Source of the DNA: a virus
Lineage: Duplodnaviria > Caudoviricetes
Length of the DNA stretch: 64,000 nucleotides
Direction: 5' to 3' (one strand)
Virus record (IMG/VR): IMGVR_UViG_3300037461_000711
Coordinates: 25,319 to 89,318 of that record
A program made the translations under genes and the position numbers. Shown here in pieces: positions 30,627 through 36,192 of the stretch; position 1 is the stretch's first letter; every line of letters starts with the position of its first letter. The notes under the pieces are model-generated. The model was given only the letters and a program-made list of their open reading frames with translations, made no database searches and was not told where the DNA came from.

Positions 30627-31946
30627 ATGCCCAGAGGTTCTTCTGATATCCCCATTTTGAGGCTTGAGGTTCTTCAGGGGTTCATGCAGACTTTCATGTC
30701 CCCCCCGAACCTTATGCTTTCGAGCCTGTTTCCTTCGACGCCTTCGCCTTCCAGCACAGTTCGGTGGGAATCCCAGAGAGGTGGTCGTGGTATGACCCCC
30801 TTTGTGGCCCCCGGTGCTCCGGCTCCTACCACTTCGCCGCATGGTGTGGCGCAGCATGTGGCCGAGGCAGCTTACTGGAAAGAGAAGATGCCCTTTGATG
30901 AGGAATTCCTCAACAACCTTCGTGCCCCCGGCACCACGGCTGAGTACCAGAGTGCGGAGTCCAGACTTGCTCGTGAGCTTGCGGGTTTGAAAAACCGTTC
31001 GGCTCGCCGCAAAGAGTGGATGTTCGCTCAAATGCTGTGCAACAATGGTTTCAGCTACCATGTCAAGGGGGGTTACCGTGCCAGTGTTGACTACGGTATC
31101 CCGACCGACCATCGCATTACCCTTGGTAGTACCTACAACTGGAACAACGGTGCCAGCAAAGACATTCTCGGTGACATTCGAGATGCCAAAATCGCAATCA
31201 ACCGCGACTGCGGGGGTTCCATCGACTTTGCGATCTGCAACAGCAACGTACTGAAGCTTCTGGCTGCGGACACTACTATCCGCGACATTCTGAAACGCCA
31301 GAACTTCATGATTAACAATCTGTACGAGGGTGCCCTTCACAACCTGATCGGCGTAAACGCCAAGGTTATTGGCTCCCTACTGGACATCCCCAACTTCATC
31401 GTCTACGATGAGATGTACGAGGTTCGTTCGTGGTTGACGGCTGCTGTTACGGCTGCTTCGACCACCTGGATTTCCGTTGAGAATGCAACGGATTTCGAGA
31501 TTGACGACACCATTCGTTTCTGGGATGCGTCTGCTGGAACCTACGAGGACCGTACCATTATCAACAAGAATTCTGAGAGTGGTACGTTGCAGATCAACTA
31601 CCCCCCGACTTCGAGCTACAAGGCCGGTGAGGATTACGTCACTCAGGCCAAGGCTTACATCCCCGACGATAAGTTCGTTATGATGGCAAGCCGGGTGGAC
31701 AATCAGCCCATCGCTGAGTACAAAGAAGCCCCGTTCGGGTTGAATCGTCAGTACGGGCAGTTCACGGATTCCTACGATGAGTGGGACCCCGAAGTGACGT
31801 GGATTCGGGTGCAGGACAAGGGCTTGCCCATTCTGTACTTCCGAGATGCGATCTACACCATCGACGTTGTGACCACGGCACATCAGGCCGAAACCAGCAC
31901 CACGACAAGCTCTTCGAGCAGCACCACCACAACCACTACTGCGTAA
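30627..31946 (+). CDS. major capsid protein (gpE-like) with C-terminal Ser/Thr tail
   Basis: MTPFVAPGAPAP, ARRKEWMFAQML, VDYGIP and YIPDDKFVM patterns; ends ETSTTTSSSSSTTTTTTA*. Confidence 0.8.
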   Translation: MPRGSSDIPILRLEVLQGFMQTFMSPPNLMLSSLFPSTPSPSSTVRWESQRGGRGMTPFVAPGAPAPTTSPHGVAQHVAEAAYWKEKMPFDEEFLNNLRAPGTTAEYQSAESRLARELAGLKNRSARRKEWMFAQMLCNNGFSYHVKGGYRASVDYGIPTDHRITLGSTYNWNNGASKDILGDIRDAKIAINRDCGGSIDFAICNSNVLKLLAADTTIRDILKRQNFMINNLYEGALHNLIGVNAKVIGSLLDIPNFIVYDEMYEVRSWLTAAVTAASTTWISVENATDFEIDDTIRFWDASAGTYEDRTIINKNSESGTLQINYPPTSSYKAGEDYVTQAKAYIPDDKFVMMASRVDNQPIAEYKEAPFGLNRQYGQFTDSYDEWDPEVTWIRVQDKGLPILYFRDAIYTIDVVTTAHQAETSTTTSSSSSTTTTTTA

Positions 31947-31990
31947 TTCTGGTAGTGGCTACAAAACTCTGAAAGGAGGCAATCGGTATC

Positions 31991-32338
31991 ATGTATATCG
32001 AAAGTGTGAAGCTTCTAAAAACACTGAAGGCTGGAAAACGAATCTGGTTGGAAGGGGTGGTCTTGAAGCCACCCCTTCCTAAAGAAATCTTGGATGAAAT
32101 TCTTTATAACACCGGCACGGTTCACGTAGTCGGTATGCCTGAGAAGTTGGCCCGTAAAGAAATTTACGACATGATTTCGAAACCGGAAATGAAAACCCCC
32201 GACTTGAAATTGAAGTCGATGGTGGCAGAAACGAACACTTCCCAGATTGTTACCGAAGCGGTTACACCACCCCCTGCGCTCCCACAGCCGAAGAAACTTT
32301 TGGTTGTGAGGGGCCGAGGTAAAGGGAAGAAAAAATGA
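31991..32338 (+). CDS. hypothetical protein with C-terminal KKLLVVR tag
   Basis: Follows the capsid gene; ends PKKLLVVRGRGKGKKK. Confidence 0.65.
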   Translation: MYIESVKLLKTLKAGKRIWLEGVVLKPPLPKEILDEILYNTGTVHVVGMPEKLARKEIYDMISKPEMKTPDLKLKSMVAETNTSQIVTEAVTPPPALPQPKKLLVVRGRGKGKKK

Positions 32339-32790
32339 CCCAGGAAGAACTCGAAGAAATTCTCATTCTTGAACTCAAGGGTCTTTCGAGCAAGGTCACG
32401 AGCAATGATCTTGCCAATGCTGTCAGCAATGCCCAACGAGACACCGGCTGGACTTTACCCCAAACCACCGATTTCAGAATTCAGTGGTTGAAGGAAAGAA
32501 CCAAGCGTTGGATTTTTTTCTTTCTTTGGTCTGAATCGGCTCACAAATTCAAATTCGAGCAAATCAATCTGCAACATCGGTTTGACCATTACGAGCGGCT
32601 TATCAAGTACATGGACGAGTTGTTTGAAAATGCCAAACTTGAGAACATTGCAGAGTTCGCTGGAGCCTCTGCCTATGAGATGTTCGGCACCAAAATTGAG
32701 GCTGGTTTTCAGTATGATGATCTTGGTAATGATACCACGTACTCAAATAACAACAGGGTAATTATTGAACCTGGGGAAGAAACCGCGTGA
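32335..32790 (+). CDS. putative head-tail adaptor
   Basis: Position after the capsid gene; ATGA-coupled. Confidence 0.5.
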   Translation: MTQEELEEILILELKGLSSKVTSNDLANAVSNAQRDTGWTLPQTTDFRIQWLKERTKRWIFFFLWSESAHKFKFEQINLQHRFDHYERLIKYMDELFENAKLENIAEFAGASAYEMFGTKIEAGFQYDDLGNDTTYSNNNRVIIEPGEETA

Positions 32791-33449
32791 GTATTGGCCC
32801 CGACATAGCTGAAGCTCTCGAAGAGGTGGGCACAGCCATTACCATCATTAAATCTGGTGGAGTGGAAACAACTGGCGAATACATCCACTACAAGATGAAC
32901 AATCAGGCTACGAAGCCTTTCATTCGTGAGTTCTTTTTGGATGGTTGGTTCTATTACAACACGGCGGCTTCAGCCGGGGATATTATCAAATTCAACGTGT
33001 TGAGCACTTATTTTTTGCTCATGAATTTGACCCCTCTTCTATTTGAAAATGCAATCATTCAGAAAAATGGAGTTCTTTACAAGTGCAACGTGTACCCCAC
33101 TCTCTTGCGGCCCAGAGAAGTTCGTGACCCGGTAAGCTACCTAACCCGCACGGTCTGGGATACTGTCACTCAGTTTCGAGGTTTGATTACTACCCCTTTG
33201 TATGGTCATGACTACGAAACTGACGAAGAGGTGGGGCATTTTGGTTTAGAAGTTCATGAAATGTATGCTCAAGAGTCTTTGGGCATTCAGATCAACGACC
33301 GAGTTTTTATTTCATCGTCGGAATATTATAGGGTGGAGCTGATTAAGCCCCGGCGGTATGAGGGTATTAACGTCTATGAGTTGGGCGAAGATACCCGTTC
33401 GTGGACGACCACCACCACGACCACAAGCACCACGACCACCACCGCATAA
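32787..33449 (+). CDS. putative head-closure/neck protein with poly-Thr tail
   Basis: GTG start overlapping the upstream stop; ends SWTTTTTTTSTTTTTA*. Confidence 0.6.
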   Translation: MSIGPDIAEALEEVGTAITIIKSGGVETTGEYIHYKMNNQATKPFIREFFLDGWFYYNTAASAGDIIKFNVLSTYFLLMNLTPLLFENAIIQKNGVLYKCNVYPTLLRPREVRDPVSYLTRTVWDTVTQFRGLITTPLYGHDYETDEEVGHFGLEVHEMYAQESLGIQINDRVFISSSEYYRVELIKPRRYEGINVYELGEDTRSWTTTTTTTSTTTTTA

Positions 33450-34760: not shown

Positions 34761-35220
34761 TTCAAGTGCGAAAGAGTCAAACCTTCGGGATAGTCTCAAG
34801 AAGTTCTTTGTGGATAACATTGAGACAGCCGAGGGTATTTCTGTTATGTTCGACCGAGGGTTGAATGCCCCCAACATTCAGGGCAAGGTGGCTGAGAAGT
34901 GGATAAGCATTAATATGGGGCCGGTAATACTGGCTACCATGTCGGACATTCTGATTGATATTTACCTCTGTACGAGAAAAGACAATGAGGGCTACAAGCT
35001 CTCTCAACTTCGAGACAAGGTTCTTGCCATACTGGTTGATGACAGCATGGACGATGGCAAAAAACGCATTACGTTTTATAAAAGCTACGCCGCTCAAGCG
35101 TGGGAAGAAATAGGCAAGCTTCTGGTTTGGGACATCATTCCCTCTGGTGATATGGTGGCCTCTGATGAAACAAAATTCAAAATACTGACGGTGATTTTGA
35201 AAGTGGCTATCAAAATCTGA
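34750..35220 (+). CDS. putative tail terminator
   Basis: Start placed at MALDSSA; position before the tail tube gene. Confidence 0.5.
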   Translation: MALDSSAKESNLRDSLKKFFVDNIETAEGISVMFDRGLNAPNIQGKVAEKWISINMGPVILATMSDILIDIYLCTRKDNEGYKLSQLRDKVLAILVDDSMDDGKKRITFYKSYAAQAWEEIGKLLVWDIIPSGDMVASDETKFKILTVILKVAIKI

Positions 35221-35237
35221 TAGGAGGCTTTACCACC

Positions 35238-35549
35238 ATGCAGCAACCAGCGAAGCGGAACTTCTTTCGGTGTGAAAAGTGTGGCAAGCGGCTGATCGAA
35301 CGGTTGCCTAATGGCCTTTGGCGTTTCATTTTTGGCAAGCCTACTGAGTCGAGTTCTTTTGTGCCGGTTGAATTGAAAATACACGGCTCTTTGGTCATGC
35401 GGTGTTTGAGGCGCAAGTGTCGCAGAGAATACCCGGATCATTGGAATGTGTTGAACTTCTTCCCTGCTAATCGACAGATTAAATCTGGCGAATCAATCAA
35501 CTCTGTTGAATCTTCTGACGTTGCAGTGCCCGAAGACATTAAAAATTGA
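35238..35549 (+). CDS. Com-like zinc-finger protein
   Basis: FRCEKCGKRL...MRCLRRKC resembles the Mu Com RCxxCxKLL...IxCPRC pattern. Confidence 0.5.
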   Translation: MQQPAKRNFFRCEKCGKRLIERLPNGLWRFIFGKPTESSSFVPVELKIHGSLVMRCLRRKCRREYPDHWNVLNFFPANRQIKSGESINSVESSDVAVPEDIKN

Positions 35550-35565
35550 AAGGAGGTGAGACTAA

Positions 35566-36192
35566 ATGGCACGTACTGGTCCCGTAACAAAAGACACCAC
35601 CACCGTTGCATTGGGACTTGCTCAGATTCGCGTTGGCACTTCTTCAACGTACATCGACGATACTGTTCCCCGGCTTGCGGCTGGCGACAGCATTGGCGCT
35701 CTGGCGAATACGAAGTTCACCGGCAACATTGAGTATTATCGGTTGGAATCTGGCTTCCCTCTGCTGGAAGATGCAATTTTCCCCCTTCGGGAATCGGCTT
35801 CTCTTGAGTGTGCTTTCAAAGAACTGACCCCGAAGAACTTTGCTCTTGCTCGCGGTCTTAACCCTGCTGGTTACACCGATGTTCACTACGGGTTTATTCC
35901 GTTGGGGCAGATTGCGGCACCTGTGGCGATTCGTGTTGAGGCGATTTATACCTTCCCCGATGGGGTCAACCGAATGGCTTTCATTTTCCCCAGGGCAAAT
36001 GCGGCAGCTACCATCGAAATGGAGTTTGCCGCCGAGGAACCGGCTGCGGTTGCGGTCGCTCTCGAAGCAAAACGCGCAGACAGCGAAGTGTCGGGTGGTA
36101 ATGCGGTTTGGGATAACATGCCCTACGGTCGCATTCTGTGGACTGACAGCAGTACCATGTGGACGACCACCACCACCACCACCACGGCTTAA
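35566..36192 (+). CDS. major tail (tube) protein with poly-Thr tail
   Basis: Upstream of the chaperone and tape-measure genes; SD AAGGAGGTGA; ends MWTTTTTTTTA*. Confidence 0.75.
   Translation: MARTGPVTKDTTTVALGLAQIRVGTSSTYIDDTVPRLAAGDSIGALANTKFTGNIEYYRLESGFPLLEDAIFPLRESASLECAFKELTPKNFALARGLNPAGYTDVHYGFIPLGQIAAPVAIRVEAIYTFPDGVNRMAFIFPRANAAATIEMEFAAEEPAAVAVALEAKRADSEVSGGNAVWDNMPYGRILWTDSSTMWTTTTTTTTA

Follow-up and report, generated by a model that had tools for sequence, protein, structure and literature searches.

Why do three unrelated virion proteins of one phage end in the same run of threonines followed by a single alanine? The question is raised by a 64,000-nucleotide stretch of DNA (hereafter the window) from the IMG/VR virus record IMGVR_UViG_3300037461_000711, a member of the Caudoviricetes, in which the major capsid protein (MCP), a neck protein of 220 amino acids (aa) and the tail tube protein all carry a poly-Thr-Ala tail at the extreme C-terminus. 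The source record is a complete virus genome of 89,318 bp with 127-bp terminal repeats, and the window covers its bases 25319-89318. Literature searches found no published description of threonine-rich phage capsid tails. From comparison with related and unrelated viruses, we propose that the tails are probably substrate tags, that is, disordered Ser/Thr acceptors for a phage-encoded, cytoplasmic O-glycosylation carried out by soluble glycosyltransferases.

A preliminary description, made from the letters of the window, had reported that the capsid, neck and tail-tube open reading frames (ORFs) share poly-Thr-Ala ends, and all three ORFs read as it described. The MCP ends in TSTTTSSSSSTTTTTTA-stop, of which TS-T3-S5-T6-A is the tag, the neck protein ends in W-T7-S-T5-A-stop and the tube protein in W-T8-A-stop, and the stop codon is TAA after all three. 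When all ORFs of at least 60 aa were taken from the six frames of the whole 89,318-bp record, only 3 of 362 ended in a Thr run (four or more Thr, then zero to two residues), and these are the three virion proteins. The bodies of the proteins contain 5.5% Thr, which gives a chance of about 4e-8 for T5-Ala at a given C-terminus. The same description had stated that the tails are written in mixed codons and are not a simple microsatellite. For the most part this is correct. The mixture is present in the capsid and neck tags, where ACC, ACG, ACA and ACT all encode Thr and AGC, TCT and TCG encode Ser; the tube tag, however, includes an unbroken (ACC)6 run. Across the tags ACC is enriched: it accounts for 19 of 30 Thr codons there, compared with 41% in the protein bodies. 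A frameshift extension from the Thr run of the MCP was also considered and rejected, as the alternative frame closes at 31972 and gives no long extension.

The history of the tails can be followed in the capsid family, of which 57 loci, with identities of 40-85%, were found when IMG/VR was scanned by capsid sequence. Capsids at least 55% identical to the window MCP make up a tagged clade, in which each has a Ser/Thr tail, as do the homologues of the neck and tube proteins that share its contig. Untagged relatives have MCPs 39-57% identical to that of the window, and their homologues end exactly where the tag starts (capsid ..LDV or ..TVT, neck ..EDTR, tube ..GRILF). In a maximum-likelihood tree the 31 distinct tagged MCPs form one clade (support 100/99) with untagged L035 and L036 as the nearest outgroups, and none of the 31 has lost the tag; on this tree, the gain of the tag in the capsid family of the window is a single change. 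Capsid tags are 14-83 aa long (median 23), neck tags 11-45 aa (median 23) and tube tags 12-19 aa (median 14). In the relatives the tags consist of 81-87% Ser/Thr, with 51-71% Thr and 15-30% Ser, and the last Ser/Thr is in most cases followed by Ala, although AP, AA, V, P or no residue also occur. Codon alignments of the capsid tags show the block order TS-T(3-6)-S(3-6)-T(5-6)-A, third positions that vary freely, and Ser drawn from both AGY and TCN codons. Therefore, selection appears to act on the tag peptide, and by this codon evidence the tags are under purifying selection as a peptide; a simple microsatellite origin is ruled out, in agreement with the earlier statement. The three-block layout of the capsid tag is kept across 40% divergence of the protein body, and the tags of the neck and tube proteins are for the most part plain runs of Thr.

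The identities of the three tagged proteins as capsid, neck and tail tube, which had been assigned from the sequence alone, are supported. The MCP scores 122 bits against PF03864, the lambda gpE family, where the curated cut-off is 22.9, and its gene lies in a lambda-like head module with terminase, portal, protease and a gpD-like decoration protein; a sequence search of the MCP against Protein Data Bank (PDB) chains gave no useful match. The neck protein was modelled as two tandem beta-barrels (predicted local distance difference test (pLDDT) 80, predicted template modelling score 0.72) with a whole-domain fold match to phage neck stopper and head-completion beta-barrel proteins, and the last ten residues of the model, which belong to the tag, are disordered (pLDDT below 50). 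Here two stopper-type beta-barrels are fused in tandem, whereas they are usually the products of separate genes, about 110 aa each. The 208-aa protein is identified by sequence and synteny as the probable tail tube because its family profile matches the 'Tail tube' chain 9n71_B of the PDB at 3.6e-7, because its ESM Atlas neighbours belong to PF25681 or YomU_Tube, and because its gene lies directly upstream of a chaperone, followed by a 1404-aa tape measure. PF25681 (Phage_TTP_17) is matched by 9 of 48 members of the tube family, with a best E of 6e-5, and the window protein itself has no Pfam match. The suggestion that the tails mark the highest-copy surface proteins held in part: the neck protein has the fold of neck-ring proteins, of which a virion contains few copies, and no tag is found on the high-copy decoration protein, either here or in any relative. 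We infer that the C-termini of the MCP, neck and tube proteins face outward, given the disorder of the tag, the mycobacteriophage precedent discussed below, and the tube relatives P0001, P0002 and L048:11186-12100, some of which carry a TIG or SWM Ig-like C-terminal domain exactly at the position of the tag. Other tube relatives of this set have an insert of about 100 aa after residue 100.

Which genes accompany the tags? The preliminary description had proposed a comparison with homologues from phages lacking the glycosyltransferase cluster, and this comparison was run on whole genomes, with G001, G003, G004 and G005 as tagged and G007 (79% complete), G009 and G011 (both complete) as untagged representatives; the methyltransferase directly after the second glycosyltransferase was left out of the homologue scoring. 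Homologues of the region 41200-53058, which encodes tail proteins (41200-46901) and a block of enzymes, are common to the four tagged genomes. From the three untagged genomes, tags, Ser/Thr-rich proteins and homologues of this block are all absent, so that relatives without the tags, including two complete genomes, also lack the enzyme block of the window. The best marker of the system is GT419, a 419-aa glycosyltransferase of the GT-B fold with an invariant REESFGLVxxE block in its alignment; every tagged genome encodes this enzyme and no untagged one does. Homologues of a second GT-B glycosyltransferase of 390 aa, GT390, occur in 7 tagged records, the 3 most complete untagged records having none, and none of the three untagged genomes has a homologue of the 241-aa protein, the second methyltransferase or the GT2 glycosyltransferase that complete the block (Table 1). 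No transmembrane segment is predicted in the enzyme block (maximum Kyte-Doolittle value of 1.52 over a 19-residue window), which fits a cytoplasmic modification before assembly. Sequence searches of GT419, GT390 and GT2 against PDB chains gave no useful match, and the match of the GT419 profile to solved structures was weak (E 0.013) and confined to the E-x7-E region of BshA-type GT4 enzymes. Upstream lies an amino-sugar cassette recognised by Pfam as a DegT aminotransferase, a hexapeptide transferase and a GT17. A caspase-family peptidase (L092:11019-11903; Peptidase_C14, 2.8e-27) adjoins this cluster and is common to the closest relative only.

Longer Ser/Thr-rich proteins follow the same distribution. 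Homologues of the 1654-aa tail protein, which in the window has an internal Ser/Thr-rich tract, terminate in poly-Thr tags in the relatives. Mucin-like homologues in the tagged genomes contain 57-74% Ser/Thr, and no such protein is found in the untagged genomes. The giant Ser/Thr-rich ORF of the window has a globular C-terminal domain that is encoded at the start of the genome (109-753).

The tags and the enzymes recur outside the capsid family of the window. A pattern scan of IMG/VR for T6-Ala-TAA gave at least 118 stretches, and many of the matches listed are true ORF ends; among the tagged ORFs, capsids from three further PHROG families occur beside a phrog_807 major tail protein, a phrog_477 adaptor and other tail proteins. 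A second lineage (L098, L110, L111, L115, L155, L168 and others) has an untagged MCP, 26-30% identical to that of the window, and a tag on the decoration protein (phrog_49, 5.5e-24) in place of the MCP. Its tube belongs to a different, phrog_807-like family and is tagged, as are 73 of 80 relatives of that tube. GT419 and GT390 homologues, 40-63% identical to those of the window, lie beside the tagged ORFs of this lineage, and GT419 is present in 7 of 7 of its records that are at least 74% complete. A few tubes of the second lineage (L356, L358, L322, L326, L336) have an acidic, Ser/Glu-rich tail (..SEGSVSESSDSSSSTSV..) instead of poly-Thr. A third type, L164, has a tagged adaptor and a tagged 433-aa tail protein, and both GT419 and GT390 are present. 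Searching IMG/VR with the GT419 profile gave 165 loci, and of the 60 loci whose identity is 45% or more, 38 lie within 10 kb of ORFs that are tagged or Ser/Thr-rich and come from several protein families. GT419 had no match in 50,697 GenBank phage records, and tags are missing from Enterococcus phage EFC-1, to which one tagged provirus MCP is related. Two of the records, G046 and G061, are proviruses.

These comparative tests, namely the co-occurrence with a specific enzyme pair, the conserved residues, the occurrence on other protein families and the disorder of the tag, support the earlier reading of the tails as portable acceptor tags, and suggest the following series of steps. The virion proteins are synthesised with a C-terminus that is a disordered run of 8 to about 80 Ser/Thr, usually capped by Ala. 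The soluble GT-B enzymes GT419 and GT390 would attach O-linked sugars to the hydroxyls of Thr and Ser and lengthen them, with nucleotide sugars of the host as donors, and the chains would be elaborated and capped by the neighbouring GT2, the methyltransferases and the upstream amino-sugar cassette. Recognition would be by composition and disorder, not by fold; therefore, any protein with an outward C-terminus could be enrolled by an appended tail, and the tails are indeed found on protein families as different as capsids, decoration proteins, adaptors and tubes. The assembled particle would then bear a glycan brush on the head, the neck collar, the tail tube and the mucin-like fibres, and one might speculate that such a coat shields the particle or promotes adhesion to polysaccharide matrices. 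In a wider sense, the poly-Thr(Ser)-Ala tails and GT419/GT390 may form a mobile, modular 'tag-and-glycosylate' system which passes between unrelated phage lineages, is the prokaryotic-virus counterpart of mucin-type O-glycosylation, and is widespread in uncultured phages while absent from deposited phage genomes; we give this broader proposal an even chance.

Several observations weigh against glycosylation of the tails, or limit how far the evidence for it reaches. Within the capsid family of the window, the tags and enzymes represent one evolutionary event and their association counts once, therefore the independent support rests on the second and third lineages. The untagged relatives carry other glycosyltransferases (a GT1/GT9 fusion and a GT2), radical SAM enzymes and methyltransferases, and the mere presence or absence of a glycosyltransferase was thus rejected as a discriminator of tagged genomes; therefore, the link is with a specific enzyme set and not with glycosyltransferases generally. 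Among the T6-Ala-stop matches listed are 12 unrelated viral records, none with a GT419-like gene and 4 of the 12 with a GT2, and in G021, the one of these that was checked, the tag is on the MCP. Therefore, such tails can exist without this enzyme set, and in those 12 records they may use host or other enzymes or stay unmodified. That the C-termini of the MCP, neck and tube proteins face outward is an indirect deduction, and the AlphaFold2 model of the tube, built from a 19-row alignment, is unreliable (pLDDT 35). Finally, the (ACC)6 run of the tube tag could shift in length through slippage.

Could the tails act without any modification, as a hydrophilic 'entropic brush' or as spacers that keep the particle from sticking to other particles or to debris, while the enzymes serve otherwise? 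The tails are disordered and hydrophilic, and there are unrelated phages in which such tails occur but no glycosyltransferase is recognised. However, a brush would not need strictly Thr and Ser, whereas the tags keep their high Ser/Thr content and a conserved block order, and the tags co-occur with GT419/GT390 in at least two virion-gene lineages. This alternative is unlikely, even if it is the most probable of the rivals. Slightly less probable is the possibility that the enzyme block modifies only the giant mucin-like fibres, or a host or DNA target, and that the short tails have another role, e.g. docking the fibres or helping assembly. The giant proteins, with 49-74% Ser/Thr, are candidates for the bulk acceptor and have the same phyletic pattern as the tags; however, the short tails match the fibre tracts in composition, the small tagged proteins of the second lineage are encoded directly beside the glycosyltransferase pair, and an enzyme that accepts disordered Ser/Thr tracts would be unlikely to spare identical tracts elsewhere. 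That the tails bear another Ser/Thr modification (phosphorylation, acylation or ester cross-links), or are signals for cleavage or ligation, is quite improbable: Ser/Thr hydroxyls accept many modifications and a caspase-like peptidase is present in the upstream sugar cluster, but no kinase was seen, the peptidase is shared with the closest relative only and not across the tagged genomes, and the genes that track the tags are glycosyltransferases and methyltransferases. The origin of the tails as neutral, functionless, slippage-born expansions of low complexity is strongly disfavoured, since the (ACC)6 run and the differing tag lengths stand against residues that are kept while mixed codons vary at synonymous positions, Ser from two codon families, the absence of loss across the 31 tagged MCPs and the coordinate gain of tags by three proteins.

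How would the proposed O-glycosylation of the tails relate to systems already described? To our knowledge, glycosylation of phage virions has so far been demonstrated only for a few mycobacteriophages. According to the work of Freeman et al. 2023 (Cell Host Microbe 31:1216), as reported in PMC12619734 and PMC12363180, the phages Che8, Corndog and Myrna carry O-glycans on the C-termini of the capsid and tail-tube proteins, made by their own enzymes. As in the mycobacteriophages, the phage genome of the window encodes glycosyltransferases (two GT1-type enzymes and a GT2) accompanied by methyltransferases, and a short motif is common to unrelated proteins at the extreme C-terminus of the MCP and the tail tube. 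However, in the Che8 sequence the capsid ends in ..NKTGS and the tube in ..YSDGS, a ..GS motif without any poly-Thr tract, whereas the motif here is poly-Thr-Ala; the Che8 enzymes are, by Pfam, a GT2-methyltransferase fusion (gp108) and a GT2 and a GT25 (gp109-110), whereas the marker enzymes here are of the GT-B (GT4-like) type; and here neck, tail-tip and fibre proteins are tagged as well. No match with E below 1 was found between Che8 gp108-110 and any ORF of this genome by blastp or phmmer. The system proposed for the window is a variant with the same logic as that of the mycobacteriophages, and not a member of the Che8 family. The genomes of this tagged group are uncultured and have 36-47% GC; the host, judged from GC content alone, is probably not an actinobacterium. 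A Thermotogota host was considered and rejected: a tagged MCP is encoded on one 9-kb contig that was binned in a Thermotogota metagenome-assembled genome, and GT419 is absent from that genome and from 151 Thermotogota genomes.

A different precedent is offered by the serine-rich repeat adhesins of Gram-positive bacteria, which are glycosylated in the cytoplasm by GtfA/GtfB, a pair of GT4 enzymes. The two systems are alike in their long, disordered Ser/Thr acceptors and in a GT-B pair acting with extending transferases in the cytoplasm, which for the phage enzymes is predicted. They differ in that no accessory Sec system is present here, and in that the acceptors here would be virion proteins. 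No GtfA or GtfB chain was among the structure matches, and GT419 and GT390 match no solved structure beyond the GT4 E-x7-E region. The Ig-like decoration domains of phage tail tubes and capsids, of the type found at the C-terminus of lambda gpV, occupy the same outward-facing C-terminal position as the tags, although they are folded domains and the tags are short disordered tails.

The results point to a second, unrelated enzyme set, together with a simple and transferable acceptor tag, for the glycosylation of phage virions, and the relatives of GT419 span at least two or three virion-gene lineages. If the proposed O-glycosylation is true, phage particles in the environment would commonly be coated with sugars, the existence of mucin-like proteins in phages would be explained, and a short C-terminal tag with two soluble enzymes would provide a compact means to glycosylate chosen proteins. 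The features on which the proposal draws are collected in Table 1.

Table 1 Features of the window considered in this study, with positions counted from the first base of the window.
Feature	Position	Strand	Basis or distribution
Head decoration protein, lambda gpD-like, untagged	29908-30603	+	Weak Pfam HDPD and phrog_49 matches
Major capsid protein, 439 aa, HK97-fold, lambda gpE family	30627-31946	+	Pfam Phage_cap_E 3e-35; phrog_29 4e-49
Capsid tag	31893-31943		
Basic protein, 115 aa	31991-32338		
Neck protein, 220 aa, tandem stopper/head-completion-type beta-barrels	32787-33449	+	Fold model
Neck tag	33405-33446		
Cys-rich protein, 103 aa	35238-35549		
Tail tube protein, 208 aa	35566-36192	+	Family profile, ESM Atlas neighbours, synteny
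Tube tag	36163-36189		
Tail protein, 1654 aa, internal Ser/Thr-rich tract at 46047-46475	41937-46901	+	
GT419, GT-B glycosyltransferase, 419 aa, divergent GT4-like, E-x7-E motif	46975-48234	+	Weak Pfam Glycos_transf_1
GT390, second GT-B glycosyltransferase, 390 aa	48827-49999	+	Pfam Glycos_transf_1 7.7e-8
Methyltransferase	49936-50535	+	Pfam
241-aa protein	50526-51251	+	Homologues in 4/4 tagged genomes compared
Methyltransferase	51221-52102	+	Pfam; homologue in 3/4 tagged genomes, none detected in G004
GT2 glycosyltransferase	52099-53058	+	Pfam; homologue in 3/4 tagged genomes, none detected in G004
Mucin-like protein, 647 aa, 49% Ser/Thr	57504-59447	+	
Giant mucin-like Ser/Thr-rich ORF	59449-63999, runs off the window and continues across the record ends	+	

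Some neighbouring genes deserve mention in their own right. The untagged relatives have a different cluster of 9-12 genes inserted directly behind the neck gene (L062:6162-14499 in G009; G007:44724-55229), which comprises a GT1/GT9 fusion of 692-718 aa, a GT2, two radical SAM/SPASM proteins and three methyltransferases. The 115-aa basic protein, whose gene immediately follows the capsid gene of the window, has no family match; its homologues were found in three tagged genomes only and in none of the untagged genomes compared. The 103-aa Cys-rich protein, a probable zinc ribbon encoded just upstream of the tube gene, is kept in tagged and untagged relatives alike, at 43-67% identity.

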